In this document: positions 9,707 to 63,814 of the stretch, in pieces
Numbering within the stretch: position 1 is the first letter of the stretch
How the letters are laid out: the number at the start of each line of letters is the position of its first letter
DNA from: a virus
Virus record (IMG/VR): IMGVR_UViG_3300032249_000542
Coordinates: 96,001-160,000 of that record
Length of the DNA stretch: 64,000 nucleotides
Direction: 5' to 3' (one strand)
Translations under genes and position numbers: made by a program
The notes under the pieces: generated by a model
Databases searched by the model: none
What the model saw: only the letters and a program-made list of their open reading frames with translations
What the model was told of the DNA's origin: nothing

Positions 9707-9711
9707 AAAAT

Positions 9712-10962
9712 ATGTCAAAAGCAGCTAATAACGCAACAGAACTAGATTACATAAACTATATTCCATCGAATAATAGTATAAACTTTACGGCTACAGTAAT
9801 TGGTAATGGTTCTCCTATTGCAGATGCAACGGCAGGAGATTATGCAAATTCATCATTCATAAAAGCGAATAGTGCATATACAAGTCAGAATACAACTGGA
9901 ACATATGCTAATGCTTCATACGCACAAGCAAACTCAGCGGCACTTTATGCTAACGGTGCGTTTATAAAAGCTAATTCTGCAGCACAATATGGTTCAAACA
10001 CTAGTACCACATCGGCACTTGCATTACCTTATGGAACAACTGCGGAACGTCCAGCAAGTCCTCAAGTTGGAATGCTCAGATACAACTCATCATTGAGTAG
10101 AGTAGAAGCATATCTTTCTGCAACTGGATGGGCAAGTGTTATTGCCGACACATATCAAATAGACTATTTGGTTGTTGGTGGTGGAGGTGGAGGAGGTTCT
10201 CGTCACGGAGGCGGTGGCGGTGCAGGTGGATTTAGAGCTGTTACAGGATTTCTTGTAACTGGAGGAACTGCATATCCCGTTACTGTTGGTGCAGGTGGTC
10301 CGGGAAATAGTGATGCTGGAACTGCAACTGTTGGTACAAGCGGTAGTGATTCTGTTTTCTCAACTGTAACATCACTTGGTGGAGGTGCAGGTGGAGGAAA
10401 CGCTGCTCCAGGTGGTTTGGTTGGTGGTTCAGGAGGTGGTGGTGGAGCAGGTAGTCCTGCTGGAGCTGCAACAGCAATAACTCCAGTTTTTGGAGAAACT
10501 ACAACTGTACAGGGTTATGCTGGTGGAAGTGGTGCAAGTCCGTTTAATCAAGATTATCTTGGTGGCGGTGGTGGTGGTGCAGGTGGAGTTGGACAAGTTG
10601 CCAATGGCGGAAAAGCAGGTGGTGCTGGTGCAACATCAGCAATAACTGGTTCAACTGTAACTTACGCTTGCGGTGGTGGTGGTGGTGCGTTCCAAGGACT
10701 GGGTGCTGGCGGTCCTGGTGGAGATGGTGGATCCAGTAACGTAAACGGCGGTAGAGGTCAAGGTAACAATGCAGGTAGTAACGGTACAGCATATACTGGA
10801 ACTGGTGGAGGCGGTGGTGGTTCTACGGGAGGATTCAATGGTGGATCAGGAGTAGTTATTATTCGTTACACAGGATCACAAAAAGGTTCAGGCGGTACTG
10901 TAACGTCATCGGGTGGTTATACGATACACACGTTTACAGGCACAGGAACATTCACAGCATAA
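9712..10962 (+). CDS. Glycine-rich tail fibre/adhesin-like protein
   Basis: Same architecture as the 5963 ORF; N-terminus resembles the 1104 and 5963 ORFs (MSKAxxNAxELxYI). Confidence 0.7.
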   Translation: MSKAANNATELDYINYIPSNNSINFTATVIGNGSPIADATAGDYANSSFIKANSAYTSQNTTGTYANASYAQANSAALYANGAFIKANSAAQYGSNTSTTSALALPYGTTAERPASPQVGMLRYNSSLSRVEAYLSATGWASVIADTYQIDYLVVGGGGGGGSRHGGGGGAGGFRAVTGFLVTGGTAYPVTVGAGGPGNSDAGTATVGTSGSDSVFSTVTSLGGGAGGGNAAPGGLVGGSGGGGGAGSPAGAATAITPVFGETTTVQGYAGGSGASPFNQDYLGGGGGGAGGVGQVANGGKAGGAGATSAITGSTVTYACGGGGGAFQGLGAGGPGGDGGSSNVNGGRGQGNNAGSNGTAYTGTGGGGGGSTGGFNGGSGVVIIRYTGSQKGSGGTVTSSGGYTIHTFTGTGTFTA

Positions 10963-20326: not shown

Positions 20327-20518
20327 ATGGACATAAGAAATTTTATAGATTTAGTTGGTTCAAATCAAAATGCAGAAGCTAAAGATGCATTAGACGAAAT
20401 TCTATCAGGTAAAGCTTTTGAAGCACTAGAAGGTCGTAAACAAGAAATAGCTAGTTCCTTATATTCTAGTGAACAATCAGAAGTTTCTAATGAGGAACCT
20501 GAAACGGAAGAAGAATGA
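20327..20518 (+). CDS. Small acidic prohead core protein (gp67-like)
   Basis: 63 aa, acidic tail, directly after portal; ATAAATA at 20302-20308 and AAGGAG SD. Confidence 0.65.
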   Translation: MDIRNFIDLVGSNQNAEAKDALDEILSGKAFEALEGRKQEIASSLYSSEQSEVSNEEPETEEE

Positions 20519-21288
20519 AATCGTTATTAGAGTTTAAATCTATTACCGAAGAAGAAAAGGCAGACTACTCTAAGTTTGATGCCTTGATCCGTGCTGGACT
20601 TGCAAACAAAGCACAGGTTCAACGTATTCATAAAATCTTAGATAAGATGGGTGAAGAACGTCCAGTATTTAACAATGCTGATCGTGCCATCATGCAAAAC
20701 CTATTCACTAAAATGGTAGATTTAATCTCTAATAATAAACAGATTTTTACACAAGCACGCCGTGCTGTGCGTGAAGAAATAGAAGAAGGTGTAATTGCAA
20801 CATCCGATTACAAGATTGGTACAGATGGTCGTAAAGTAAAAGCACATCGTATTCAAGTTGGTAAACGTGATGAACCAGAAGATCAAAAGATTATGGAAGA
20901 ACCTTTGGCAATAAAGGATCCTCCTAATGTTCTTCTACTAAAAAGAATTACGACTAGACTGTTTCCTGACGGAACAAGAGTTGCATTATATTATAACAAA
21001 TTATTAGATAAGCATTTTACCATACCATATGGTCCTGGTATTAATGCACCATTGCAAGCTGAAGAATTACAAATGTCGGCATTTGATTCTTTACAGATGG
21101 TTCTTGCAAATGGAGAAGATACAGAAATTTCATTTGGTAATGAATACCGTATAGTAAGTTTAGTTGAGGCACAGTCGTTAATACGTCTATATCATAATTT
21201 AAGTGAAGAAAACAAACAACGAATGATTAATCAGTTAGATAATCCAGAGATGTTTGACAAATTTACCGATTATGCATTAAAACAATGA
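20515..21288 (+). CDS. Hypothetical head-associated protein
   Basis: In the head operon; N-terminus MKSLLEFKSITEE resembles a capsid-targeting/gp21-cleaved leader; DPPNVLLLKR...FPDG.RVALY. Confidence 0.55.
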   Translation: MKSLLEFKSITEEEKADYSKFDALIRAGLANKAQVQRIHKILDKMGEERPVFNNADRAIMQNLFTKMVDLISNNKQIFTQARRAVREEIEEGVIATSDYKIGTDGRKVKAHRIQVGKRDEPEDQKIMEEPLAIKDPPNVLLLKRITTRLFPDGTRVALYYNKLLDKHFTIPYGPGINAPLQAEELQMSAFDSLQMVLANGEDTEISFGNEYRIVSLVEAQSLIRLYHNLSEENKQRMINQLDNPEMFDKFTDYALKQ

Positions 21289-21711: not shown

Positions 21712-22074
21712 ATGCCATTAGAGATTACCAACTCGTTAAGAAATCATTCTATTGCAAGGGCTACTGGTCCAGGAACATATACGATTGCTCTTAACGATCT
21801 AAGAAAAAATACAACAACCGAAGTTGTTAATACGGCTGATATTAAAAGAATAGTTTGGTCAACAAATGCTAGCATTACTATTGTACGTAATAGTGTAGAA
21901 CTTGCATCTTTACATACTGCTGGTGAAATGCGTTTTGATGACTGGAATCACAGTCTTGCAAATAACAATGGTTCAAGCATTGTAATTACTATTGTAACTG
22001 GTGGAACAATTGTTTTAGAGTTATCTAAACAAGCATCGTTTAATGTGGATCCAGTAACAGGAGTAACACTATAA
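21712..22074 (+). CDS. Hypothetical virion protein
   Basis: Beta-rich 120-aa ORF coupled (TAATG) to gp21. Confidence 0.55.
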   Translation: MPLEITNSLRNHSIARATGPGTYTIALNDLRKNTTTEVVNTADIKRIVWSTNASITIVRNSVELASLHTAGEMRFDDWNHSLANNNGSSIVITIVTGGTIVLELSKQASFNVDPVTGVTL

Positions 22075-22724
22075 TGAAACTAATTACCGAACAAATTGAG
22101 AACGTAAAATATCTCACAGAAAAAACTGAAGATGGTAAAAAGAAGTTGTACATTGAAGGTACATTCTTAGTGGGTGATGCAGTTAATAAAAATAACCGCA
22201 TGTACAAGATGGACACCCTACGCAATGAAGTTAAAAGATATGACGAAGAATATATTAAGACCAATCGTGCATTAGGTGAACTTGGTCACCCAGATACTCC
22301 TTCTTTGAATCTAGAGAGAGTGTCACATAAAATTGTTTCTTTAGCAGAAGATGGTAACACATTCTATGGCAAAGCAATGATTCTAGACACACCATACGGT
22401 CAGATCGTCAAAAACTTTATTGACTCTGGTGTTAATCTAGGAGTATCATCCCGTGCTATGGGTTCTGTTACCATGACTAAAGAAGGATATAATCTGGTAC
22501 AAGATGATTTAAGGCTTGCAACTGCAGCCGATATTGTTGCAGATCCATCTGCTCCAGGCGCATTTATCAACGGCATTATGGAAAATAAAGAGTGGTTGTT
22601 TGTCGAGGGACGTTTTGTGGAAATGGATATTGATAACGCCAAAAGACAGATCAAACAGGCATCTAAACAACAAATAGAACATGTAGCTCTGAATCTATTT
22701 GAAAATTTTCTCAGAAAACTTTAA
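22074..22724 (+). CDS. gp21: Prohead protease gp21
   Basis: ALGELGHP, LGVSSRAMGS, DIVADPSAPGAF. Confidence 0.96.
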   Translation: MKLITEQIENVKYLTEKTEDGKKKLYIEGTFLVGDAVNKNNRMYKMDTLRNEVKRYDEEYIKTNRALGELGHPDTPSLNLERVSHKIVSLAEDGNTFYGKAMILDTPYGQIVKNFIDSGVNLGVSSRAMGSVTMTKEGYNLVQDDLRLATAADIVADPSAPGAFINGIMENKEWLFVEGRFVEMDIDNAKRQIKQASKQQIEHVALNLFENFLRKL

Positions 22725-23846: not shown

Positions 23847-25187
23847 ATGTATTTGTCAGAAGGCCTACAAACCAAATGGGAATCGGTGCTTAATCACCCA
23901 GAACTCCCAGCAATTAAAGATCCATACCGTAAAGCAGTTACGGCTTTGATTCTAGAAAACCAAGTTCAATCGATGCAAAAGGAAGGTCAAATCCTTACCG
24001 AAGCATCACCAACTAACTCTGCTGGTACAGGTGGTTTTGGTGGTGGCGCTACTGCAACAGGTCCTGTTGCTGGTTTCGACCCAATCATCATTTCTTTGGT
24101 TCGTCGTTCACTACCTAACCTAATCGCTTATGACGTTTGCGGCGTTCAGCCAATGACTGGTCCTACAGGATTAATTTTTGCAATGCGTACACGTTTTGGT
24201 ACACAATCAGGAGACGAAGCATTCTATAACGAAGCTAATACTCGTCACTCTGGTGCTGAATCCGCTGTTGCAACAACTTATGCACTACAAGCTGATACAG
24301 CTGCATCAGACAACGTATTCGCAAACACAATTCTTGCAGGTCCTTCAATGGCTACAGCATCTGCTGAAGCTCTTGGTACTTCAGGTGCAGTTGCATTTGA
24401 AGAAATGGCATTCTCAATCGAGAAAGTTACTGTAACTGCTAAGACCCGTGCTCTAAAAGCAGAATACTCAATGGAACTTGCACAAGACTTGAAAGCAGTT
24501 CATGGTCTAGACGCAGAAACAGAATTGGCTAACATCCTTTCTTCTGAAATTCTTGCTGAAATCAACCGTGAAGTTGTTCGTACAATTTACACAGTTGCAA
24601 AAACTGGCGCACAAATTGGTACAACTACTGCTGGTACATTCAATCTTGACACCGACTCAAACGGTCGTTGGATGGTTGAAAAGATCAAAGGTCTAGCATT
24701 CCAAATCGAACGTGAAGCTAACTTCATCGCTAAGACAACTCGTCGTGGAAAAGGTAACATGGTTATCTGTTCTTCAGACGTAGCTTCTGCTCTAGCAATG
24801 GCTGGTATTCTTGACTATCAATCAGCATTGCAAGGTCAAGTATCATTGACAGTTGATGATACTGGTAACACATATGCTGGTACATTGTTCGGTCGTATGA
24901 AAGTGTACATCGATCCATACTTCCCAACTGGCTCTTCAACCGAGTTCGCTGTTGTTGGTTACAAAGGTTCGAATGCTTATGACGCTGGTATCTTCTACTG
25001 CCCATACGTTCCTCTACAAATGGTTCGTGCAGTTGATACAGGTTCCTTCCAACCAAAAATTGGTTTCAAGACTCGTTACGGAATGGTTGCAAACCCATTC
25101 GCAGAGGGTACAACCCAAGGTTCAGGAAACTTGAATCGTCAATCGAACTTCTACTATCGTGCAATCAAGATCGCAAACTTGATGTAA
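23847..25187 (+). CDS. gp23: Major capsid protein gp23
   Basis: GVQPMTGPTGLIFAMR, RALKAEYSMELAQDLKAVHGLDAE, FQPKIGFKTRYG; likely gp21 cleavage at ILTE/A. Confidence 0.98.
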   Translation: MYLSEGLQTKWESVLNHPELPAIKDPYRKAVTALILENQVQSMQKEGQILTEASPTNSAGTGGFGGGATATGPVAGFDPIIISLVRRSLPNLIAYDVCGVQPMTGPTGLIFAMRTRFGTQSGDEAFYNEANTRHSGAESAVATTYALQADTAASDNVFANTILAGPSMATASAEALGTSGAVAFEEMAFSIEKVTVTAKTRALKAEYSMELAQDLKAVHGLDAETELANILSSEILAEINREVVRTIYTVAKTGAQIGTTTAGTFNLDTDSNGRWMVEKIKGLAFQIEREANFIAKTTRRGKGNMVICSSDVASALAMAGILDYQSALQGQVSLTVDDTGNTYAGTLFGRMKVYIDPYFPTGSSTEFAVVGYKGSNAYDAGIFYCPYVPLQMVRAVDTGSFQPKIGFKTRYGMVANPFAEGTTQGSGNLNRQSNFYYRAIKIANLM

Positions 25188-51973: not shown

Positions 51974-52224
51974 GTGATAACGTATTTTCTTTTGCACAAG
52001 TTGAAAGCAAACACAAGGAAGCAGAAAAACAAAACCTATTGGATACAGTCGAAGAAGTTCGAAAGAAAATCGAAGATGGTGAAATCACAGAACTTGTTTT
52101 TTCTTGCTTAACTACAGATGGTGACGTTGATATCAATGCATCAGTAAAAAATAGATTAAGTGCAATCGCATTATTAGAAGCAGGTAAGATGATACTTTTT
52201 AGAGATGTTAATTCAGAAGAATGA
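51970..52224 (+). CDS. Hypothetical protein
   Basis: 84 aa, overlaps both neighbours (ATGA). Confidence 0.6.
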   Translation: MSDNVFSFAQVESKHKEAEKQNLLDTVEEVRKKIEDGEITELVFSCLTTDGDVDINASVKNRLSAIALLEAGKMILFRDVNSEE

Positions 52225-53336
52225 ATTTGACTAAAGAACAGGCACTAGTGTGTGCCAAGATGTTCTCTGATTATTTCGATAAACATGCAAATGTCGAAGA
52301 ATACATGAGAGAACAGAAATTGAATTCTATGAATGATAGACCAGTTACTCTACCTGGGATGGGACCAGAAGATGACTTGTTCTCTGATTTTGCTATGCAT
52401 CCAAATAACATGGAATTTAAAGTGGTGGAGATATCTTCAGATAAATGGGATAACTATATCTCAATTATTTCATCACATTCTAATATGACTAGTATCCCTG
52501 GTAGAAATATTAAGTTTGCAGTCAAAGAAGTCAAGAGTGATAAGTGGGTTGGATTCATTCGTTTGGCATCACCTATGATGAATATGAAACCACGTAATGA
52601 TATGTTGGGTGGTGCTTTTATATCTGATCCTGTAACTGCAAAATCATTTAATAATTCTGCAATCATGGGGTTTGTTATCGTACCTGCACAACCATTTGGA
52701 TTTAATTATCTTGGTGGTAAACTACTTGCGGCAATATGTTGTTCACATTTTGTCAGAGAACGTGTAAATGAAAAGTATGGTATGAATTTGTGTTTGTTTG
52801 AAACTACAAGTCTATATGGTAGTTCTAAAACAGTCTCACAGTATGATGGTATGAAACCATACATTCGTTATAAAGGTTTGACTGAATCTAATTTCATTCC
52901 CATGATGCACGGTAAACCATATGATGACCTGATTAATTATGTTGAAGGATTGATTGGTGTGTTTGTTGCACCAGACGCATCGTCCAGAAAATTGACAATG
53001 CAGACTAAAATCATTTCAATGATAAAGGCAACATTGAAAGGTGAACCAGAATATCAGTCCTTTACAAAAACTCTGGATAACGCACTCAATCTGATGGAAA
53101 AGAAACGATACTATATTTCTGACTATGGATTCAGTAACATGGAAGATGTTGCTATGGGACGTACTACAGAACTGATTCCAAACAAAGAAAACTACGACAA
53201 GTTTCATCTTGAAAACATTATAGAATGGTGGCGTAAGAAGGCTGTTAATAGATATGAAACTCTGAAGTCCGAGAATAGAATACGGACTGAACAAGAAGTC
53301 TGGACAAGTGGGAAAGATATTGACATAATTCGGTGA
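52221..53336 (+). CDS. DUF4338/DruA-like conserved phage protein
   Basis: SIPGR, GFIRLASP, PFGFNYLGGKLLA, ETTSLYG...SQYDG motifs. Confidence 0.6.
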   Translation: MNLTKEQALVCAKMFSDYFDKHANVEEYMREQKLNSMNDRPVTLPGMGPEDDLFSDFAMHPNNMEFKVVEISSDKWDNYISIISSHSNMTSIPGRNIKFAVKEVKSDKWVGFIRLASPMMNMKPRNDMLGGAFISDPVTAKSFNNSAIMGFVIVPAQPFGFNYLGGKLLAAICCSHFVRERVNEKYGMNLCLFETTSLYGSSKTVSQYDGMKPYIRYKGLTESNFIPMMHGKPYDDLINYVEGLIGVFVAPDASSRKLTMQTKIISMIKATLKGEPEYQSFTKTLDNALNLMEKKRYYISDYGFSNMEDVAMGRTTELIPNKENYDKFHLENIIEWWRKKAVNRYETLKSENRIRTEQEVWTSGKDIDIIR

Positions 53337-53353
53337 TCGTGGTAATATAAATA
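53320..53353 (+). promoter_or_regulatory. Overlapping sigma70 and late promoters
   Basis: TTGACA-17 nt-TAATAT (with TGn) overlapping TATAAATA at 53346-53353. Confidence 0.7.
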
Positions 53354-54463: not shown

Positions 54464-55690
54464 ATGAAATTTAATCAATTCATAACAGAAGCAAAAGAAG
54501 ATAAGAATGTTCATCTAGAACATATTGAAGATGAAATCATTAATCGTGGTGTTGCAGGTGCTCGTGATGCAGTAAACTTCTTGCGTTCATTACGTGACAT
54601 GCTTGCAGGTCACTCACAATCTAAAGTAAACGTAACAACAAAGTGGGATGGTGCTCCTGCAATCTTTGCTGGCATCAATCCAGAAAATGGAAAGTTCTTT
54701 GTTGGCACTAAATCTGTATTCAATAAAAGTGCAAAACTAAACTACACCGATGAAGATATCGATGTGAATCACCCAGGTGAAGGTTTAAATGATAAACTAA
54801 AAGTCGCACTTGCCTTCCTTCCTAAACTTGGAATCAAAGGTGTACTGCAAGGTGACATGATGTTTGCAAAAGGCGACATACAAGAAAAAACAATTGATGG
54901 TGAAAATTACATAACATTCCAACCAAACACAATTGTTTATGCAGTCCCAGCAGAATCTAAACTCGCAAAGATTATGTTGGCAGCACAACTTGGTGTTGTA
55001 TTCCATACTGCATACATAGGTAAGACACTTGAAACAATGAAAGCGTCATTTAACATTGACATCGGACATCTACAAACAACAAAAGATGTTTGGTTTCGTG
55101 ACGCATCTTTCACCGATGCATCTGGTTCTGTAACATTTACAATCGAAGAAACAAAAGCAATTACAACTATTCTATCAGATGCAGGTAGATCATTGGCAAC
55201 TATTAATCCAATGACATTAAACAGAATTTCTGCAAGTGACGTTTATTCCACATATATCAAAACATTTAATAATACAAAGATTCGTGAAGGTAAGAAGATT
55301 ACTAACACAAGAGAACATACTAGAGAATTGTTGGCGTGGATAGAAGCAAAACTAAACAAAGCGATACAAGAATCAAAAAGAGATGACACCAAACAAAAAA
55401 GAATCACAGAGAAAAATGAGATAATGCGTTTCTTTCGTGGTTCTGCAAATGATATCGTTTCGATGCTTGACTTTATGAACCATTTGGTGGATGCAAAACT
55501 AATGATAGTTCGCAAGTTAGAATCTATCCGTTCGATAGGTACATTCATTCGCACAGACGATGGTTACAGAGTAACTGCACCAGAAGGGTTCGTAGCAGTA
55601 GATAGATTACAAGGTAATGCAGTCAAGTTAATTGATAGACTTGAATTTGCACATGCCAACTTTAATGCAGCAAAGAACTGGAGCAAGTAA
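54464..55690 (+). CDS. Ligase-superfamily nucleotidyltransferase-like protein (DUF6267-type) with capsid-targeting-like leader
   Basis: HLEHIED; KWDG (motif I), LQGD (III), EGFV (IV), VKLIDR (V); N-terminus MKFNQFITE. Confidence 0.6.
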   Translation: MKFNQFITEAKEDKNVHLEHIEDEIINRGVAGARDAVNFLRSLRDMLAGHSQSKVNVTTKWDGAPAIFAGINPENGKFFVGTKSVFNKSAKLNYTDEDIDVNHPGEGLNDKLKVALAFLPKLGIKGVLQGDMMFAKGDIQEKTIDGENYITFQPNTIVYAVPAESKLAKIMLAAQLGVVFHTAYIGKTLETMKASFNIDIGHLQTTKDVWFRDASFTDASGSVTFTIEETKAITTILSDAGRSLATINPMTLNRISASDVYSTYIKTFNNTKIREGKKITNTREHTRELLAWIEAKLNKAIQESKRDDTKQKRITEKNEIMRFFRGSANDIVSMLDFMNHLVDAKLMIVRKLESIRSIGTFIRTDDGYRVTAPEGFVAVDRLQGNAVKLIDRLEFAHANFNAAKNWSK

Positions 55691-55962
55691 TGTCATACGA
55701 TATAAACAAAATCATGGCAGAATATGGTGAAGAAGATTTTGGATTCACCGCAGTTGATGAAGCAGAATATGAAGCGGTAATAGCAGAGAAAAATGAAACG
55801 GTAGAAGAATACAAAGCAAGATTAACTCAGGTAGAAAAGATTATTATGCCTTTTCTAACCAATCTTTTAAAATCACAAGCACAACCTTACATTCATTGGC
55901 CCAATCGTGGTCCTATCATTGAGAAACAAATACAAAAGATCCTGACATTAACAAGAGGATAA
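55690..55962 (+). CDS. Conserved small phage protein
   Basis: DFGFTAVDE...PFLTNL...YIHWPNR. Confidence 0.6.
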   Translation: MSYDINKIMAEYGEEDFGFTAVDEAEYEAVIAEKNETVEEYKARLTQVEKIIMPFLTNLLKSQAQPYIHWPNRGPIIEKQIQKILTLTRG

Positions 55963-55970
55963 TAACAATA

Positions 55971-56714
55971 ATGCAATCATTTGATAGTTTCCTGTACGAA
56001 TCAAAAAGTAAAGACCTTGGTGGCTTGACAATCTTTGATATTGATGATACACTATTTCATACAACAGCACAGATTGCTGTAATGAAAGACGGTAAAAAGA
56101 TAAAAGATTTAACTAACCAAGAGTACAACACCTATAAGTTAAAACAAGGTGAGTCTTACGATTACTCACAGTTTAGAGATTCGAAAAAGTTTAAAGAAGA
56201 ATCTAAACCAATCGAGCGTATGTTGACAAAGGCAAAAGTTATTCTACGTAATGCTGAGTCAAATCCAAAAAGTAGAGTAATCATTGTAACTGCAAGAAGT
56301 GATTTCAATGATAAAGAAACTTTTCTTTCTACATTCAAAGACCATGGACTAGATATAGATAAGATTCGTGTTGAACGTGCTGGTAAGTTGGCAGGAAGTG
56401 TATCTGATCCTGCGACAGCAAAAGCAATCATCATCTATAACTATCTAAAGACTGGCCAGTTTGGTCGTGTTAGGTTGTTTGATGATAGTATGGCAAACCT
56501 AAGAGCATTTTTGAAATTGAAACAACACTTCAAAGATGTTACGTTTGAAGCATACTTTGCAAAACCAAATGGATCAATACAAACAATAAAAGAAGAACAA
56601 GAGTTTGTTTCAAAGGCAGGTGCTGGTGAATGGGGTAGACCAGAACTTAGAGACAAATATGTTAAAGATACTCCTGGTCAAAGTAAGAAACTATATAAGA
56701 AGTATACGAATTAA
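55971..56714 (+). CDS. HAD-superfamily phosphatase (Pnkp phosphatase-like) with capsid-targeting-like leader
   Basis: FDIDDT, VTAR, K, LFDDS; N-terminus MQSFDSFLYE; C-terminal GEWG...Y...TPGQ tag. Confidence 0.72.
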   Translation: MQSFDSFLYESKSKDLGGLTIFDIDDTLFHTTAQIAVMKDGKKIKDLTNQEYNTYKLKQGESYDYSQFRDSKKFKEESKPIERMLTKAKVILRNAESNPKSRVIIVTARSDFNDKETFLSTFKDHGLDIDKIRVERAGKLAGSVSDPATAKAIIIYNYLKTGQFGRVRLFDDSMANLRAFLKLKQHFKDVTFEAYFAKPNGSIQTIKEEQEFVSKAGAGEWGRPELRDKYVKDTPGQSKKLYKKYTN

Positions 56715-56733
56715 TTTTTAATATGGAGTGTTG

Positions 56734-57579
56734 ATGGATGATTTAATTATTGGATGTTCAACCAACTATGATTGGTCCAAGATAAAGTATTGGATTAACT
56801 CAGTCAATCAAAGTGGTTTCAAAGGCAAGAAAGTCATGATTCTTATGAATTGTGATGTTGAAACTGCTACTAAAGTTTTAAAAGCAGGATTTGAAATAAT
56901 TTCATTTGGAACTGATGCGATGGGTAATCTCACGCATCAAAGTCCATTCATGGTTCATGTGGAACGATTCTTGCATATCTATAATTATTTGAAAGATAAT
57001 GAGTTTAGGTACGTTATAACTACGGATGTTAAGGATGTTATATTTCAAAAGAATCCATCTGAATGGTTAGAAGAATGGTTAGGAAATGAGTCCTTCGATG
57101 ATGATTTAGTATTCTCATCTGAGAGTATATTATATAAAAATGAACCATGGGGTGATAACAATCTAATGGAAACATTTGGTCCATACATTCATAACATATT
57201 CAAAGAGAATGAGATTTATAATGTTGGTGTTCTTGCTGGCCGTGGTTATGCGATGCGAGACTTAGTATTGAATATCTTCTTGGCATGTGTTGGTAAACCA
57301 ATTAAGATTTGTGACCAATCAACATTCAACTTCCTAATATCACAACATCCGTATCTGAAAACATCCAAGTATGCAAAATCAGAAGATGGTTGGGCATGTC
57401 AGTTAGGTACAACTGTTGATCCAAGTAAAATAAACGAATTCAAACCATTCTTACTTGAACCATCACCAATAATGCAAGATGGTAAAGTCGTTACATCAAC
57501 AGGAAAAGAATTTTCAATTGTTCACCAGTATGATAGAGTACCTGAGTGGAAAAATATTATAGAGGCAAAATATGAGTGA
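56734..57579 (+). CDS. Putative glycosyltransferase (GT-A-like)
   Basis: ERF, TTDVKDVIFQKNP, NVGVLAG, DQSTFN, HQYDR. Confidence 0.6.
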   Translation: MDDLIIGCSTNYDWSKIKYWINSVNQSGFKGKKVMILMNCDVETATKVLKAGFEIISFGTDAMGNLTHQSPFMVHVERFLHIYNYLKDNEFRYVITTDVKDVIFQKNPSEWLEEWLGNESFDDDLVFSSESILYKNEPWGDNNLMETFGPYIHNIFKENEIYNVGVLAGRGYAMRDLVLNIFLACVGKPIKICDQSTFNFLISQHPYLKTSKYAKSEDGWACQLGTTVDPSKINEFKPFLLEPSPIMQDGKVVTSTGKEFSIVHQYDRVPEWKNIIEAKYE

Positions 57580-58147
57580 TACATTTACAATAGACACCGT
57601 AGCACAAGCATTTGGTGGACAACAGCAACAACCACAATTTAAACCTGCGGGATATCATTTTGTTGAGTTTATGAAACAAATGGAAAATCCTGTGGTATTA
57701 GAGATTGGGTGTGACATTGGAGACACATCACAACTACTATTGGACTGCAATGAAAGTTTAAAATTGTATGTCATTGATCCATACGATGATTATGTTGATT
57801 GGAATGGTAACAACCTAAACGAAAGACAAAAACTTTACGAACAAGCAAGAGAACGATTTGCACCATATGGTGATAGATTCAAACTGTATCGTTTGACATC
57901 CGATGATGCCGCAGATGAATTTGAAAAAGACTTCTTTGATTTAATATTCATCGATGGATTGCATACGTATGAACAACTAACAAAAGATTGTGCGAACTAT
58001 TACTCTAAACTAAAAACTGGTGGAATATTTGCTGGACATGATTACACAGTCATTGAAGGTGTTAATCGTGCAGTTAATGAGTTTGCTGCGAAGCAAGAAA
58101 AAGAAATTCATCAAGGTGATTGTGATACATGGTTCTGGATCAAATGA
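57572..58147 (+). CDS. Class I SAM-dependent methyltransferase (Methyltransf_24-like)
   Basis: LEIGCDIG, IDPY, DLIFIDGLHTY, GGIFAGHDY. Confidence 0.85.
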   Translation: MSDTFTIDTVAQAFGGQQQQPQFKPAGYHFVEFMKQMENPVVLEIGCDIGDTSQLLLDCNESLKLYVIDPYDDYVDWNGNNLNERQKLYEQARERFAPYGDRFKLYRLTSDDAADEFEKDFFDLIFIDGLHTYEQLTKDCANYYSKLKTGGIFAGHDYTVIEGVNRAVNEFAAKQEKEIHQGDCDTWFWIK

Positions 58148-58833
58148 GAAACTGTATAGTTTTTTCTGGTCAGTTCCGTACTCTACGTGATACACTTCCA
58201 AGCATTAAAGAGTTTATTAGTGTTAATGCATTGGATGTGTATTGCCAACTATGGGGTGACAATCCAGATGAGAAACGATTTATACTAGACCATCTAAAAC
58301 CAAAAGACTATTGGTTTGATAAGTATACAGCACACAAAGATGTGTTTGATGGTATAGAAACTAGAGTTCGTGCAACGCATCCAAAGAATGCTCCTAACGA
58401 TAAGATTGCTGGTAATGCATCAATGAACTATGCTAGAAAGATGGCATATAATTTGGTAAAAGAAAAGTATGATAACATTATCTATTGCAGATACGACATA
58501 GAGTTTGTTCAACAATTTTTGGTAGAACAACAACCAGATGTTATTCTAACTCCTTTAGAAGAATCATACAATCTTATCTCCGATATATTTGCAATCATAC
58601 CAACGCAATATGCAAAGTCATATTTTCTTTATGATGAATATGAAAGATTACATTCAACACAATTTGAACCAGAGTTTGTAGATTGGTTGCGTGATATTAA
58701 AAAGTATGGTGATGATAATATCAACATACATATGTTTGAGAGATACTGTCCTCATATGATGTTGTTACGTAATCTATTTACAGACAAAACTCCATTTGTA
58801 ACAATGGACATACCCGTGAGATTAAAACGATGA
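58144..58833 (+). CDS. Putative glycosyltransferase-like protein
   Basis: IVFSGQFR, DVYCQLW, YCRYD, SDIFA; paralog of the next gene. Confidence 0.5.
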   Translation: MRNCIVFSGQFRTLRDTLPSIKEFISVNALDVYCQLWGDNPDEKRFILDHLKPKDYWFDKYTAHKDVFDGIETRVRATHPKNAPNDKIAGNASMNYARKMAYNLVKEKYDNIIYCRYDIEFVQQFLVEQQPDVILTPLEESYNLISDIFAIIPTQYAKSYFLYDEYERLHSTQFEPEFVDWLRDIKKYGDDNINIHMFERYCPHMMLLRNLFTDKTPFVTMDIPVRLKR

Positions 58834-59546
58834 AAATTGCACTATGTCTATCTGGTCAAGCCAGATCATTCAAACAAGGATTCGAATATTACAAAAAGAA
58901 TCTACTAGACCATTATGATGTTGATGTATTCATTCACACATGGGAGTTTGATGAATGGAAAGAATACGTAGACTTATATAATCCTGTAGAATTTAAAATG
59001 GATCAATCGGTTACTGTAGATTATGGTAAGACGATTGATGAGATGTATATAAGAACTCCTAACAAAGAAAAGTTTCCACCACGTTTCACGTATGCGATGT
59101 TACATTCTATGGATACATGTGCTACTATGTTGTCAAAGCATGTATTCACCGCACACAAGAATTATGATTGGGTAATTCGTTCTAGAAGTGATTATGCATT
59201 GAATGTAAAGATTTCATTTGCAGAACTAGATAATTCAAAACTATACATTCCTAACTGTCGCATGGTACCAGAACGTGACTTTGGTAATGACCAGTTTGCA
59301 TTTTCATCTCTTAAAAATATGTTGAAGTATATGTCAACATATAGAATGATGGATCACTATTATACTGACCTTAATGCAACATACATTGGTGAAAATCTGA
59401 TGCAAGCAAATTTACATCAGCACAGTTTACATGGAGAAAATCTTGTCTACGTTGACATGAATAATCCATTCCCGCCTGGAAAACATAATGGAACTTGGCA
59501 CTCCCTCATTCGTGATGACTATGAACAATGGACGGAAAAATCTTAA
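58830..59546 (+). CDS. Putative glycosyltransferase-like protein
   Basis: IALCLSGQAR, DVFIHTW, IRSRSD, NDQFAF. Confidence 0.55.
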   Translation: MKIALCLSGQARSFKQGFEYYKKNLLDHYDVDVFIHTWEFDEWKEYVDLYNPVEFKMDQSVTVDYGKTIDEMYIRTPNKEKFPPRFTYAMLHSMDTCATMLSKHVFTAHKNYDWVIRSRSDYALNVKISFAELDNSKLYIPNCRMVPERDFGNDQFAFSSLKNMLKYMSTYRMMDHYYTDLNATYIGENLMQANLHQHSLHGENLVYVDMNNPFPPGKHNGTWHSLIRDDYEQWTEKS

Positions 59547-60277
59547 AAGAATTAAAAGGTCATTCAGGAAATAAAATCTATCTATTAGAATCAGACAATC
59601 AATTCATTGTACACAAGTCTGGTGATGTAAAAAGAAACGTAGAGAGATTGCAAGATTTGTTTCGTGAATTCTATGATGTACCTTTTATATTAAATACTGA
59701 CGGTGAGACTTTTATGGATATGGAATATATTCATGGTCTCGATATGAAAGAGTATTTAAAAATGAATACCATCAATAAACTTGCTGGGTTCATCATTGAA
59801 ACACTTAATAACTTTGCAAAAAGTTCGGTACTGTATGACTATACTGGTGTGTACCATCAAAAGTTGGATTGGGTAGACTCTGCAACAGACCTACCTTTTT
59901 CCAAAGATGAGTTGATTACTCGATTACCTAAACAACTTCCACGATCACAATATCATGGTGACTTTACCTTAGAAAATTTGATGTTTTCTGAAGATAAGTT
60001 TATAATGATAGATGCAGTCACGATTGAATATGATTCCTACATATTTGACATTGCAAAACTTCGGCAAGATTTAGAATGTAAATGGTTCCTAAGAGACGAT
60101 ACGCTTAAACTAGACGTTAAGTTAAGAAATCTACAGGACAAAGTATTAGAAAGATTCCCACTTGCAAAGAATGATTATATTTTGATTCTCATGTTGTTGC
60201 GAGTATATCGTCACACACAACCCGGTGATAGTAACCATCAATTTATTATGAAAGAGATTAACAGATTATGGAAATAA
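59528..60277 (+). CDS. APH/choline-kinase-like phosphotransferase
   Basis: GHSG, MEYIHG, HGDFTLEN, MID, DIAKLRQD. Confidence 0.8.
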   Translation: MDGKILKELKGHSGNKIYLLESDNQFIVHKSGDVKRNVERLQDLFREFYDVPFILNTDGETFMDMEYIHGLDMKEYLKMNTINKLAGFIIETLNNFAKSSVLYDYTGVYHQKLDWVDSATDLPFSKDELITRLPKQLPRSQYHGDFTLENLMFSEDKFIMIDAVTIEYDSYIFDIAKLRQDLECKWFLRDDTLKLDVKLRNLQDKVLERFPLAKNDYILILMLLRVYRHTQPGDSNHQFIMKEINRLWK

Positions 60278-61293
60278 TTGTACCTGCGGCAGGAGCATCT
60301 ACTAGATTCCCTGACATGAAACCAAAGTATTTGTTGTATGACTATGGTCATAAGATGATGATACAAAGAGCATTAGAACCATATCAGGGTCACAACATTA
60401 CGATTGGTATTCTCAAAGATCATGATGCTCACCATTCTGCATCTGATTATTTGAAACATGAATTCAAAGACACAGCAAAAATTTGTATCATGGACAAGAT
60501 GACAAAAGGTCCTGCTGATACAGTCTATCAAATAATCAAGAGTTCAAATATTGATCCTGATGCAGAACTATTGATTAAAGATTGTGATAGTTTCTTTGAC
60601 CATGAAATGTCAGAGGGTAATTATATTTGCGTATCAAACATTGCACAACATGAAGTATTAAAAAAACTATCTTCCAAGAGTTTTGTTATTGCGAACGAAC
60701 AAGGTATCATTACAGATATCATTGAGAAGAATGTGGTGTCAGATACATTCTGCGTTGGTGGTTATAAATTCTCAAGTGTTAGATTGTTCTGTGAAGCATT
60801 TGAAGAACTAAAATTGCATAGTGAAATATTTGTTTCAGATGTCATTCAACGATGCTTGCACAAAGGTGAAATCTTTACAGAAAAATTAGTATCAAACTAC
60901 ATTGACGTTGGTACTGCACAAGATTGGTTTGAATACAACGACAGACCAGTAATCTTTTGTGATATAGATGGTACACTAATTGAATCACAAGGTCGTGTTG
61001 GTGGTAAGAGTTTTGACTCACCAATCGTACCAATGCGAAAAACTCTAGATAAACTTTTAGAATATCAAAAGAATGGAGCACAGTTTGTATTCACAACAGC
61101 AAGACCAAAAGATGTAGAAGGAATAACTCATAGTATGTTAGGGTCACTTGGATTCCGTAACTTCGAATTGATTATGGGACTACAGAACTCAAGACGCATA
61201 TTAATTAATGACTTCAACAATTCAAATCCATATCCTCGTGCTACTGCAATTAATGTAGAGAGAGACAAAGACCAAGTGGCGAATTATCTATGA
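60268..61293 (+). CDS. Sugar-phosphate nucleotidyltransferase fused to HAD phosphatase
   Basis: PAAGASTRF...PK, GPADT, DCD, DVGT; then CDIDGTL, TTAR. Confidence 0.8.
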   Translation: MEIIVPAAGASTRFPDMKPKYLLYDYGHKMMIQRALEPYQGHNITIGILKDHDAHHSASDYLKHEFKDTAKICIMDKMTKGPADTVYQIIKSSNIDPDAELLIKDCDSFFDHEMSEGNYICVSNIAQHEVLKKLSSKSFVIANEQGIITDIIEKNVVSDTFCVGGYKFSSVRLFCEAFEELKLHSEIFVSDVIQRCLHKGEIFTEKLVSNYIDVGTAQDWFEYNDRPVIFCDIDGTLIESQGRVGGKSFDSPIVPMRKTLDKLLEYQKNGAQFVFTTARPKDVEGITHSMLGSLGFRNFELIMGLQNSRRILINDFNNSNPYPRATAINVERDKDQVANYL

Positions 61294-61985
61294 AACCAAA
61301 TAGACCTTTATTCATTATAACATCAGCACTCAGACCAACGATGGGTGTGTTCTCATTCAAAGAACGATACGACCAAACGATAAAAACTATTAAATCCATT
61401 AGAAGTAAATGTCCTAATGCATACATTCTATTTGCAGATGCATCTATTGGTGATGTTCCTGCTGTTGAATTTATGATTATATCCAAGATGGTTAACTTCT
61501 TTATGAAAATGAATGAGAAGTATAACCGAGATGTTATAGAGTTGAGTAAAGCAAAGTTGAAAAGTCAAGCTGAGACTGCATTACTGTATCACATACTTGT
61601 AATGATGAAACGTGATCCTAATCTACAGAAAGCATTGTATTCAACCAATCGCATATTCAAGATTAGTGGTAGATTAGAATTGGATATGGACTTTGATCTT
61701 AAAGAATATGACGAATTGTTTGGAAAGTATGTGTTCAGAAAACGTATTCCAACATGGATGAATCCACCTAAAGTGAGTGATTTATTCGTCACCAGATTGT
61801 ACTCTTTCTGTCCATCCCTTATCGATGACTATATTGGTGTACTGCAACGCAACTTTCAAATGTTAAATGACGTTGACACAGAACATGCACATTTTGCGAA
61901 TATTGACCCAAAATACTTGGTAGAATTCGAAAAAGTTCATTGTAAAGGGCAAGTTGCATCTACCGGAGAGTGGCACTACGATTAA
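61290..61985 (+). CDS. Hypothetical glycosyltransferase-like protein
   Basis: FIITSA, ERYDQT..TIKSI, FKISGR; coupled to the glycan cluster. Confidence 0.45.
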   Translation: MKPNRPLFIITSALRPTMGVFSFKERYDQTIKTIKSIRSKCPNAYILFADASIGDVPAVEFMIISKMVNFFMKMNEKYNRDVIELSKAKLKSQAETALLYHILVMMKRDPNLQKALYSTNRIFKISGRLELDMDFDLKEYDELFGKYVFRKRIPTWMNPPKVSDLFVTRLYSFCPSLIDDYIGVLQRNFQMLNDVDTEHAHFANIDPKYLVEFEKVHCKGQVASTGEWHYD

Positions 61986-61991
61986 AAAAGA

Positions 61992-61998
61992 CTAAATA
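61992..61998 (+). promoter_or_regulatory. Putative late promoter (CTAAATA)
   Basis: Intergenic; precedes GGAG SD. Confidence 0.55.
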
Positions 61999-62027
61999 GA
62001 AAGTCAACTGCTGTAGAGGCGGAGAAA

Positions 62028-63611
62028 ATGAACTTTATAGACTTTCTAACTGAACAAACCGAAAAACACGCTGTCCTTGCATTTGGGAGAATGAACCCAA
62101 TTACTTCCGGACATCAAACGCTTATCAATAAAGTTAAAGATGTTGCACAAGACTATGGTGCATCACATCATATAGTTCTGTCCCACACTACAGACCCTAA
62201 CAAGAATCCTCTTACTGGCACACAGAAACTAAAGCACGCTAAACGTGCATTTCCTAAGACTAATTTCTCAGTCTCAACTCCAGAACATCCTACATTTCTT
62301 CAACAAGCAGCTAAGTTACACCAACAAGGTGTGACACATCTACACATGGTAGGTGGTTCTGATCGTGTTGAAGAATTTCATAATCTATTGCACAAGTACA
62401 ATGGTAAGAAAAAAGGTTCATTGTTTAACTTCAAAGATATACAAGTACATTCTGCTGGTGAACGTGATCCAGATGCAGAAGGTGTAACTGGTATGTCAGC
62501 ATCTAAGATGCGTGAACATGCAAGTAAAAACAATTACAAAGAATTCAGAAAGGGTACACCTTCAACGATGGCTGACGAACATGCTAAAGATTTATACAAC
62601 GATGTTCGTAAAGGCATGGGAATTAAAGAAGATATTAACTTTGGTTTTGAAATGTTACTTACCGAAGGTGTACATGATAAAGGTATATTCAAAGCAGTAT
62701 TCTTAGCAGGTGGTCCTGGTTCTGGTAAAGATTATGTGTTAAGTAATACATTAGATGGTCAGGGATTAACAGAAATTAATTCCGACAAGGCACTAGAGTA
62801 TTTGATGGATAAGAATCAACTCGACAAAAGAATGCCTAAGAATGAAAAAGATAAGAGAGATATCATTCGTGGTCGTGCAAAATCAATTACAGATATTCGT
62901 GAACGATTAGCATTGGAAGGACGTAACGGTCTTATCATCAATGGTACGGGTGATGATTATGAGAAGATTGCAAGTATCAAAGAAAAACTTGAAGCACTAG
63001 GTTACGAAACAAAAATGATTATGGTTAATACTGCCGATGAAGTTTCCCGTGACAGAAATGTTGAACGTGGAAAACTTGGTGGACGTACAGTACCAGAAGA
63101 TGTTCGTAAACAGAAATGGGATTCGGTTCAAGCATCAAGAGCACAGTTAGCAGAACTATTTAAGAGTAACTATGTTGAGTTTGATAATTCAACAGATTTG
63201 AGAAATGCTGATGATGCAACAAGAAAAGCAAAACAAGATGAAATGGACGAAATCTTCAAAGATATTCAGAAATTTGTATCTAAACCCCCAAAGAACGATG
63301 TTGCAAAAGAATGGGTAGCATCTGAATTAGATAAAAAAGATAGTACACCATTGATGAGAGCAAATGAAGCAATGCCACATACAGAATCTGGTGCTGCTGA
63401 AAAAGCAAGAGAGATGGGATTAGATTATTATGGATTTGGACGTTACGGTAAAGATGGCACAGTATTGTATCGTTCGGTACATGATAAACTAGTTGATATG
63501 CGTAAGAGTGGTGCAAAAGAATCTACCAGTTCTTCAAGTTCGTCTAAACCAAAACCAAGAACTAAAACACCTGAACCTATTGAAGTTGATTACGAAAAAG
63601 ATCCACAATGA
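62028..63611 (+). CDS. HxGH-type cytidylyltransferase-like domain fused to P-loop (zeta/AAA_33-like) kinase
   Basis: FGRMNPITSGH, VGGSDR, SAGERDPDAEG.GMSASKMR; AGGPGSGKD, INSD, R...R lid. Confidence 0.78.
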   Translation: MNFIDFLTEQTEKHAVLAFGRMNPITSGHQTLINKVKDVAQDYGASHHIVLSHTTDPNKNPLTGTQKLKHAKRAFPKTNFSVSTPEHPTFLQQAAKLHQQGVTHLHMVGGSDRVEEFHNLLHKYNGKKKGSLFNFKDIQVHSAGERDPDAEGVTGMSASKMREHASKNNYKEFRKGTPSTMADEHAKDLYNDVRKGMGIKEDINFGFEMLLTEGVHDKGIFKAVFLAGGPGSGKDYVLSNTLDGQGLTEINSDKALEYLMDKNQLDKRMPKNEKDKRDIIRGRAKSITDIRERLALEGRNGLIINGTGDDYEKIASIKEKLEALGYETKMIMVNTADEVSRDRNVERGKLGGRTVPEDVRKQKWDSVQASRAQLAELFKSNYVEFDNSTDLRNADDATRKAKQDEMDEIFKDIQKFVSKPPKNDVAKEWVASELDKKDSTPLMRANEAMPHTESGAAEKAREMGLDYYGFGRYGKDGTVLYRSVHDKLVDMRKSGAKESTSSSSSSKPKPRTKTPEPIEVDYEKDPQ

Positions 63612-63814
63612 AAAATTTAAAACAACACATCAGCGATTTACACGGTAAATCCTTAAAACACGGAATTACAGGTCATGAATTCACTCTAAAAAAAGATGGA
63701 CCTAATGAGTATGATATTTACAAAGGTAATAAGTTCATAGGTTCCATTAATGGTAAAAGTGAAGAAGCCGTTTTACATGTCCTACAGCAAAAAGGATATG
63801 AAATCAATGACTAA
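63608..63814 (+). CDS. Hypothetical protein
   Basis: 68 aa, ATGA overlap. Confidence 0.55.
   Translation: MKNLKQHISDLHGKSLKHGITGHEFTLKKDGPNEYDIYKGNKFIGSINGKSEEAVLHVLQQKGYEIND

Follow-up and report, generated by a model that had tools for sequence, protein, structure and literature searches.

Mullaney and Black reportedly described, in 1996, internal proteins of phage T4 that bear a capsid targeting sequence. In the T4 proteins IPI, IPII, IPIII and Alt the sequence is removed by the gp21 protease (PMC9026906, PMC3012670), where the aromatic residues at positions 4 and 7 direct targeting and the aliphatic residue at position 8 and Glu-10 direct processing (PMC9026906). According to the accessible part of the survey by Iyer et al. 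2017 (PMC5512222), the so-called polyvalent proteins consist of several enzymes in one chain, believed to be packaged and to enter the cell along with the DNA for an early contest with the host; they load via MuF/portal fusion, whereas the enzymes considered here would load via a capsid targeting sequence. That part of the survey makes no mention of cyanophages, zeta-like kinases or polynucleotide kinase. Heal-and-seal repair of nucleic-acid ends is represented by T4 Pnkp with the ligases Rnl1 and Rnl2, by fungal Trl1 (ligase-kinase-CPD) and by bacterial Pnkp-Hen1. Finally, cytidylyltransferase- or NMNAT-like proteins have been found by mass spectrometry in purified virions of cyanophages (S-CREM2 gp154, S-SZBM1 140, S-SCSM1 ORF91 and S-CBWM1), and NMNAT-like proteins are known from virions of further cyanophages as well. 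The portions of these virion papers that were available to us take them for enzymes of NAD or of the cell wall, and mention neither a leader or T4-like targeting signal nor a tie to the adjoining gene of the family DUF6267.

We have analysed a stretch of 64,000 nt (the window) from the complete genome (169,777 bp, ~169.8 kb) of a T4-like phage that belongs to an aquatic Kyanoviridae-like branch of this group. One of its proteins has a nucleotidyltransferase domain homologous to that of the cyanophage virion proteins, and those of S-CREM2 and S-SZBM1 start with the same leader as found here. Our leading reading, to which we assign a probability of about 0.55, is that three genes of the window encode enzyme cargo that would be loaded into the head for work on nucleic-acid ends. 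The three reading frames proposed in a first-pass annotation (54464, 55971 and 62028) were all recovered as described, and are given here with their surroundings.

53346..53353, plus strand: late-promoter-like TATAAATA, 31 nt upstream of ORF 53378 (motif-level)
54464..55690, plus strand: DUF6267 protein, 408 aa, with a predicted ligase-superfamily (covalent nucleotidyltransferase) fold
54464..54490, plus strand: leader (residues 1-9, the last three ITE) of the DUF6267 protein
55690..55962, plus strand: acidic ORF of 90 aa between the ligase-like and HAD genes
55971..56714, plus strand: predicted HAD phosphatase of 247 aa; residues 1-10 form a leader, and all four HAD motifs are present
61992..61998, plus strand: late-promoter-like CTAAATA, 36 nt upstream of 62028
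62028..63611, plus strand: predicted nucleotidyltransferase-kinase, 527 aa

The 90-aa ORF is without the leader and a family search gave no match. As for the late-promoter motifs that had been proposed at 53346 and 61992, the former is indeed TATAAATA, whereas the latter reads CTAAATA and is not the full motif. The copy at 53346 is a candidate driver that could serve the tightly packed run 53378-54464-55690-55971. Exact copies of TATAAATA number three in the 64,000-nt window versus 6.1 expected, and NTAAATA precedes the sheath, tube, scaffold and capsid genes, and likewise 53378 and 62028, by 12-52 nt.

All three proteins start with a leader of the pattern M-x(1-2)-F-x-x-F-[IL]-x-E, which ends in ITE in 54464, LYE in 55971 and LTE in 62028, and when the complete 169,777-bp genome was scanned in six frames, this leader turned up at these three gene starts only. 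Once called near-identical, the leaders are better described as similar: all three keep the aromatic-4, aromatic-7, aliphatic-8 and Glu-10 spacing of the T4 tag, where the leader of 55971 follows the tag position for position and those of 54464 and 62028 have one residue fewer ahead of the first aromatic. As a control, T4's own tag was recovered twice in T4. Homologues of the 62028 protein retain the leader in 119/120 cases, HAD homologues in 94/120 and related DUF6267 ORFs in 60/80. Moreover, within 80 related loci the strict pattern occurs at 110 of 1298 ORF starts versus 4 of 6358 internal Met positions, an enrichment of approximately 135-fold, and chance is thereby excluded.

A gp21-type protease and the scaffolding core are both present in this genome. 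The gene for the scaffold protein, which has an LLE↓A site, is adjacent to that for the capsid protein.

22074..22724, plus strand: gp21-type prohead protease (Peptidase_S77, E 7e-37), the expected remover of the leaders
23847..25187, plus strand: major capsid protein; ILTE↓A at residues 50-54 is a probable site of maturation and matches the leader ends

By analogy with T4, the leaders would be cleaved after Glu. Published virion proteomes provide a further line of evidence, as leader-bearing homologues or analogues appear in three of them, including those of S-CREM2 and S-SZBM1, and comprise such unrelated functions as a SAM hydrolase and an APH-like kinase. S-CREM2 has six leader genes (gp6, gp13, gp14, gp136, gp154 and gp175, the last of 55 aa), and all except gp175 were found in its CsCl-purified virion, as compared to 52/219 genes overall (5/6; hypergeometric P 0.003). 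In S-SZBM1 the leader-bearing protein 140 was detected in the virion and the adjoining DUF6267 gene (141), which has no leader, is missing from the list; no DUF6267 protein has so far been reported from any virion. The authors of the proteome papers themselves caution that enzymes present in abundance may be carried along when virions are purified. Thus, the suggestion that the leader resembles a T4-type capsid targeting sequence is borne out by the mapped positions, the gp21-type protease, the capsid site and the homologues in virions of other phages. It is likely, by this analogy, that the three enzymes are packaged in the phage head, and since they bear a T4-type tag they would probably be injected with the DNA. 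As with the T4 internal proteins, the tag is conserved, the cargo varies and the tagged genes are clustered. The T4 cargo, however, consists of small basic proteins or a restriction inhibitor, whereas here it would consist of large enzymes, for which packaging and cleavage in this phage are predicted. If true, the capsid-targeting signal of T4 is at work in abundant aquatic T4-like phages, so that injected proteins could be predicted from sequence alone, and the recurrence of cytidylyltransferase-like, kinase and SAM-hydrolase proteins in purified cyanophage particles would be explained.

The motifs that had pointed to the ligase superfamily in the DUF6267 protein are real and near-invariant among 111 family representatives. 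They comprise K60-W-D62-G63, Q129-G130-D131, E374-G375-x-V377 and K388; conservation reaches at least 90% for K60-x-D62-G63, D131, E374-G375-x-V377 and K388, which follow one another in the order expected of motifs I, III, IV and V and are candidates for these. The structural model (pLDDT 91.9) shows the nucleotidyltransferase-domain fold. Unlike known ligases, the protein has a helical insertion of 127 residues (227-353), and a search of Pfam down to E 0.1 gave no ligase family; there was no PDB sequence match with the single protein or with a profile, and hhalign versus T4 Rnl2 gave a probability of 0.1. We consider it a putative, divergent ligase-superfamily nucleotidyltransferase. PF01068, PF09414, PF01653 and PF09511 have no match in the genome and the DUF6267 protein is its only ligase candidate, as it is in several such genomes, which would provide a function-level lead for a family of more than 2,700 representative clusters on which a literature search found no published study.

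The DxDxT signature noted earlier in 55971 proved genuine (D23/D25/T27) and is invariant in 40 homologues; T107, K151, D171 and D172 are invariant as well and motifs I-IV are intact, so that the protein is predicted to be an intact HAD phosphatase. It matches phrog_415 weakly (E 4e-4), and some of its homologues weakly match Acid_phosphat_B and DUF2608. In 62028 the P-loop GPGSGK was confirmed at residues 229-234. A HIGH-motif (TxGH) nucleotidyltransferase domain that the first-pass annotation had missed is part of the same protein, which is divided as follows.

62028..62627, plus strand: leader (residues 1-9) and HIGH-motif nucleotidyltransferase domain (T26-x-G28-H29)
62628..62669, plus strand: disordered linker, in which F207 stands ahead of an invariant L211-x-E213↓G214
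62670..63347, plus strand: P-loop kinase domain of the PNK / zeta-toxin / PSTK group
63390..63497, plus strand: small conserved beta module GL-x-Y-x-GFG-x-Y, common to virion kinases of S-CREM2 and S-CRM01

The linker (residues 201-214) has a pLDDT <50 and its motif columns are invariant in 40 homologues, which suggests a second leader-like or protease-site-like motif. The kinase scores above the cut-off for AAA_33 and aligns over its whole length with residues 3-144 of T4 Pnkp (BLASTP, 26% identity, pairwise E 2e-4). The alignment includes the P-loop GPGSGK, INSD versus INRD (the catalytic Asp, D253 opposite Asp35) and the RNxxRG lid, RNVERG versus RNSKRG, where R343/R347 stand by eye opposite R122/R126. 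In Foldseek the best target-normalised TM, 0.70, was obtained with the polynucleotide kinase of C. thermocellum.

In the leading reading, the tag would bind the prohead scaffolding core as in T4 IPI-III, and a gp21-type protease would cut the leaders after [IL]-x-E, with a probable second cut in 62028 at the invariant LxE↓G between the two enzyme domains. The mature enzymes would stay with the DNA and be ejected into the cell, where from the first moment of infection the kinase could phosphorylate 5'-OH ends, the phosphatase remove 3'-phosphates and the ligase seal. If true, the injected ligase, kinase and phosphatase would forestall host nucleases in a way that is new. Like T4 with its Pnkp and Rnl1/Rnl2, the phage combines a ligase-fold enzyme, a Pnkp-alignable kinase and a phosphatase. 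The T4 enzymes, however, are cytoplasmic and lack the capsid targeting sequence, and the HAD protein here is encoded separately and shows no similarity to the T4 Pnkp phosphatase in BLASTP, nor a PNK3P match. We put forward heal-and-seal end repair by the set only tentatively, at less than even odds. The original proposal of one RNA/DNA heal-and-seal pathway is hypothetical: the HAD gene accompanies DUF6267 in only 5/37 related loci, and in structure the kinase resembles zeta toxin, PSTK and AvrRxo1 no less than it does polynucleotide kinase. The kinase is found within 10 kb of DUF6267 in 17/37 loci. DUF6267 also occurs fused to the nucleotidyltransferase and to the kinase (phrog_455), and the kinase-DUF6267 fusions (P0179) are reminiscent of fungal Trl1. 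Possible, though doubtful, is the wider idea that DUF6267 is an unrecognised polynucleotide ligase family (with an Rnl-like core, a helical insertion and no OB domain), which would be the missing ligase of Kyanoviridae-type T4-like phages, preloaded by means of the tag in many lineages together with the nucleotidyltransferase-kinase. No earlier phage would then be known to bring strand-joining enzymes into the cell along with its genome, and the puzzling 'metabolic' enzymes of cyanophage virion proteomes would be accounted for.

The cargo reading has to be weighed against views in which the leader has little or no part in packaging. The shared N-terminus might be a translation-start or folding feature without a sorting role, on unrelated cytoplasmic enzymes made early or late; the promoter motifs are short indeed and the evidence for packaging in this phage is indirect. 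We consider this very improbable, as the leader codons differ at synonymous sites among the three genes, so that selection acts on the peptide, the leader segment is disordered in the models of both 54464 (residues 1-11, pLDDT <50) and 62028, the same tag occurs on many unrelated families clustered around DUF6267, and the tag predicts virion presence in S-CREM2. DUF6267 could also chiefly be a replicative or recombinational nick-sealing ligase that replaces T4 gp30, with replication accessories as neighbours and a leader that is secondary or docks to the replisome. Nick sealing in duplexes is known for enzymes of the Rnl2 and Rnl5 types, and the leader shares the hydrophobic i, i+3, i+4 spacing with the C-terminal clamp motif SLESFF of the polymerase. 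Moreover, the DUF6267 gene directly follows those for DNA polymerase, UvsX and the gp41 helicase, both here and in S-PM2, S-CRM01, S-SZBM1 and Melnitz, and T4 has only PF01068 of the two families PF01068 and DUF6267, this genome, Melnitz, S-PM2 and S-SZBM1 only DUF6267. Leaderless versions are common and include homologues at 81% identity, hence packaging is optional for the DUF6267 enzyme. However, S-CRM01 carries both a PF01068 ligase and DUF6267, a host ligase could serve replication, and a replisome-docking motif would not explain the leader-bearing SAM hydrolase and APH-like kinase in virions. Moreover, the last residues of the leader form the protease motif [IL]xE, which is also seen at the capsid site. 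We regard a mainly replicative role as quite unlikely, and such a role would in any case be compatible with packaging.

A different function for packaged enzymes is the salvage of cofactors. Here 62028 would be NadR-like (NMN adenylyltransferase plus ribosylnicotinamide kinase) or a PPAT and dephospho-CoA-kinase pair, and the HAD protein would belong to the nucleotidases of class B/C acid-phosphatase type. Together they would restore NAD+ or a related dinucleotide at an early stage, e.g. in response to defences that deplete NAD+, and DUF6267 would consume the cofactor or act independently. In fact, Foldseek with the whole 62028 protein ranks NadR first (E 4e-6 to 6e-5), with both domains aligned over 420-449 columns, and NadR (PDB 6gyf, 1lw7) has the same order of a HIGH nucleotidyltransferase and a P-loop kinase in one chain. 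Source annotations of homologues (NMNAT, NadR-like, dephospho-CoA kinase) and the literature, in its available portions, that reads the virion protein as NMNAT point the same way, as do the matches of HAD homologues to Acid_phosphat_B (15/40) and 5'-nucleotidase (2/40). Fusions of DUF6267 to the nucleotidyltransferase would suit an enzyme coupled to cofactor supply. Nevertheless, none of the curated NadR, NMNAT and CoaD/CoaE models reached its cut-off on 62028 (the generic cyt_tran_rel gave 22 bits vs 27.7), identity to the structural matches is 9-17% (approximately 12% for NadR), and the kinase sequence aligns with T4 Pnkp, not with NadR. NadR also lacks the leader, the internal protease site and the C-terminal GFG module. 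Cofactor salvage is unlikely in our view.

The HIGH nucleotidyltransferase, for which the repair model has no role, is the most constant companion of DUF6267, by linkage or by fusion, unlike the situation in the known heal-and-seal systems: it is present within 10 kb of DUF6267 in 29/37 loci and its fusions to DUF6267 are frequent. In relatives of 62028 the chain also includes PAP2, ATP-grasp, DUF5824 and DUF6321 modules, which is reminiscent of the polyvalent proteins.

Three genes of this phage start with the same type of short leader, and the evidence from the genome and its relatives points to packaging of their products in the virion, a reading to which we assign a probability of about 0.75. 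The record is complete (169,777 bp, with direct terminal repeats), the plus strand carries all long ORFs of the window (bases 96,001-160,000), and the phage, a T4-like myovirus, belongs to the aquatic Kyanoviridae-like branch. The main features are:

22074, plus strand: Peptidase_S77 protease of a T4-type head module, followed by scaffold and major capsid protein
45857, plus strand: family-B polymerase of the replication module, with the clamp motif SLESFF at its C-terminus
54464-55690, plus strand: DUF6267 protein, leader MKFNQFITE
55971-56714, plus strand: HAD protein, leader MQSFDSFLYE
62028-63611, plus strand: nucleotidyltransferase-kinase, leader MNFIDFLTE

Among isolates, the 54464 protein has its best match in Methylophilales phage Melnitz (49% identity), whose DUF6267 protein also carries the leader; next come Pelagibacter phage HTVC008M and then hundreds of cyanophages. 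A megablast comparison with 50,697 phage records returned no DNA-level relatives of the region. Between the HAD gene and the nucleotidyltransferase-kinase gene lies a seven-gene sugar or glycan cluster (56728-61985; GT-like proteins, a Methyltransf_24 protein, an APH-like kinase and an NTP-transferase + HAD fusion); a comparable cluster is absent among the DUF6267-neighbouring genes of Melnitz and S-SZBM1. The replication module also encodes a 371-aa protein (52221-53336) that matches Pfam DruA (Druantia defence; E 1e-9) and the phage protein family phrog_19197.

The three ORFs and their leaders are as the first-pass annotation had described them, and scanning the genome in all six frames showed the pattern at these gene starts only. 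The leader is present in 119 of 120 homologues of the 62028 protein, in 94 of 120 HAD homologues (upstream start calls account for most exceptions) and in 60 of 80 DUF6267 genes on related viral contigs, with F-x-x-[FY]-[LI]-x-E as the family-wide core. Moreover, on the contigs of related DUF6267 loci the strict pattern marks 110 of 1298 ORF starts versus 4 of 6358 internal Met positions. At the DNA level the three leaders differ at synonymous sites, and the segment is disordered in both structure models. ORF 53378, which lies just upstream and follows a TATAAATA motif, was a candidate for a fourth member; it was rejected because the leader is missing from it and from its five homologues.

T4 uses the tag MKTYQEFIAE to bring IPII and IPIII into the prohead, and mutational mapping has assigned targeting to residues 4 and 7 and processing to residues 8 and 10 (PMC9026906). 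The three leaders keep the aromatic, aromatic, aliphatic and Glu residues at T4 spacing; a control scan of the T4 genome recovered the T4 tag twice. A protease of the matching type (gp21-type, Peptidase_S77) is encoded in the same genome. The probable maturation sites of the capsid protein (ILTE/A, the stroke marking the cut) and the scaffold (LLE/A) imply that the leader ends resemble the phage's own cleavage sites. A 257-aa ORF of the head module (20515-21288) has a related start motif, a hydrophobic pair followed by ITE, and its product may be a prohead core protein cut by the same protease. Two small ORFs, at 63608-63814 and at 65747 (past the window end), have weaker leader-like N-termini with Asp in place of the final Glu; in T4, Asp at this position permits targeting and blocks cleavage.

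Published proteomes of CsCl-purified virions of relatives are in line with packaging. The S-CREM2 genome, scanned whole for annotated genes that start with the leader, yielded gp6 (SAM hydrolase, MKDFDSFLEE), gp13, gp14 (APH-like kinase), gp136, gp154 (cytidylyltransferase, MKNFSSFLTE) and gp175 (55 aa). The first five are in the virion proteome, versus 52 of 219 genes overall (hypergeometric P 0.003; PMC10665884). The S-SZBM1 report (PMC9146016) has cytidylyltransferase 140 (leader MRFRQFIIE) detected in virions and its virion list lacks the adjoining, leaderless DUF6267 gene 141. In addition, NMNAT-like proteins are reported in S-SCSM1 and S-CBWM1 virions, and one of the four leader-bearing genes in the DUF6267 neighbourhood of S-CRM01 encodes a kinase reported in virions (cited through PMC10665884). 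The proteome authors caution that abundant enzymes might co-purify with virions. A targeting leader goes unmentioned in the text examined of the S-CREM2, S-SZBM1, S-SCSM1 and S-CBWM1 virion papers, and a full-text literature search turned up none connecting cyanophages with a capsid targeting sequence. The packaging proposed in the first-pass annotation is well supported, though indirectly, by the leader, the protease, the cleavage-site match and the virion proteomes of relatives.

Two further observations concern these virions. S-CREM2 gp12 (7704-10313 of its locus, L007) and its homologue S-CRM01 g128 (9424-9975 of L004) have a leader-like motif about 17 residues past the annotated start; since gp12 is listed in the virion proteome, either the annotated start is wrong or the tag can act from an internal position. 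A module of about 40 residues with the core GL-x-Y-x-GFG-x-[YW], encoded at 63390-63497 in the 62028 protein, also directly follows the leaders of S-CREM2 gp14 and S-CRM01 g130, both virion-reported kinases.

Late expression of the tagged genes is plausible from their upstream motifs. NTAAATA occurs at 12-52 nt from the starts of the sheath, tube, scaffold and capsid genes, on their upstream side, and it also precedes 62028 and 53378, the first gene of the run that holds 54464 and 55971. Exact TATAAATA, however, is rarer in the window than expected (3 observed versus 6.1). As for the unity of the system, fusions join DUF6267 to the HIGH nucleotidyltransferase, with either partner first, and also to the kinase; phrog_455 spans DUF6267 and the HIGH nucleotidyltransferase. 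Of 37 related DUF6267 loci whose downstream flank measures 4 kb or more, 29 have the HIGH nucleotidyltransferase, 17 the kinase and 5 the HAD, and 4 have the complete set of three. These counts make the predicted ligase-fold DUF6267 and the HIGH nucleotidyltransferase the core pair, to which the kinase is often and the HAD sometimes added. DUF6267 is surrounded by many unrelated leader-bearing ORFs, including nucleotidase-like HADs and paralogous families, a build-up reminiscent of the variable internal-protein loci in T-even phages.

The 54464 protein belongs to Pfam DUF6267 (E 3e-116), a family of 2,733 representative clusters at 50% identity for which the literature gave no full-text match. 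Its AlphaFold model, built with 110 diverse relatives, has pLDDT 91.9 and pTM 0.88. The near-invariant K60-x-D62-G63, D131, E374-G375-x-V377 and K388 occur in the order expected for ligase motifs I, III, IV and V, with a 127-residue helical insertion among them; two invariant His residues form a pair close to the N-terminus. Foldseek of the model returned nothing significant, the top match being a DNA ligase (E 0.2). Sequence and profile searches of the PDB gave chance matches only and hhalign of the profile to T4 Rnl2 no relation, so that none of the sequence methods applied, Pfam included, linked the protein to a ligase family. The ligase fold is supported at the structural level, and we class the protein as ligase-fold without placing it in any named ligase family. 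Short DUF6267 proteins (about 295 aa) in S-CREM2 (58890-59777) and S-SCSM1 (221406-222290, where profile positions of about 207-311 are missing) lack the helical insertion, which is therefore dispensable for the core fold. The N-terminal extensions (about 110-130 residues) of some DUF6267 proteins had no Pfam match and no ESM Atlas lead.

All HAD motifs of the 55971 protein are invariant, which makes an active phosphatase, as had been proposed, very likely. Its nearest families are DUF2608 and the class B acid phosphatases; sequence and profile searches of the PDB found nothing, and the ESM Atlas only viral hypothetical and HAD-IIIB-like clusters. In the 62028 protein the P-loop of the annotated kinase was confirmed; the nucleotidyltransferase domain had been missed.

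What the enzymes would do together is less clear, and the originally proposed heal-and-seal pathway, in which the kinase phosphorylates 5'-OH, the phosphatase removes 3'-phosphate and the ligase seals, is one of three live readings, tentative and with the odds somewhat against it. The kinase (residues 215-440) aligns with the whole T4 Pnkp kinase domain (BLASTP, 26% identity, pairwise E 2e-4) with P-loop, general-base Asp and RNxxRG lid lined up, although the residue opposite Asp85 is non-acidic; the 55971 protein shows no similarity to the T4 Pnkp phosphatase. A NadR-like cofactor pathway is rather unlikely. Foldseek of the 62028 protein ranked two-domain NadR first (E 4e-6) and gave the best target-normalised TM (0.70) to C. 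thermocellum polynucleotide kinase, and for the kinase there is a near-tie of zeta toxin (14.8), PSTK (14.5), C. thermocellum polynucleotide kinase (14.4) and AvrRxo1 (13.8).

DUF6267 is the sole ligase candidate of this genome, the complete sequence of which had no match to the ligase models PF01068, PF09414, PF01653 and PF09511. T4 has PF01068 and no DUF6267, the reverse holds for Melnitz, S-PM2 and S-SZBM1, and S-CRM01 has both. A mainly replicative role of DUF6267 seems quite improbable to us; a replicative ligase role and packaging are compatible.

The disordered interdomain linker of the 62028 protein contains an invariant F-x-x-L-L-x-E/G, a second leader-like site, which suggests that two separate enzymes may arise from the protein by cleavage within the head. 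Its homologues are mostly 700-850 aa long, and their last 250 residues or so are here encoded in an ORF of their own, which continues beyond the end of the window (63750 to 65750, 666 aa, with this domain at its end), the module being split by about 1.4 kb of extra sequence. Relatives carry added PAP2, ATP-grasp, DUF5824 and DUF6321 modules; at five of the related loci (L072, L084, L087, L090 and L092) the HIGH nucleotidyltransferase is fused to a PAP2 phosphatase, to DUF5824, or to a RimK-type ATP-grasp with Zn_protease, in chains of up to 1214 aa.
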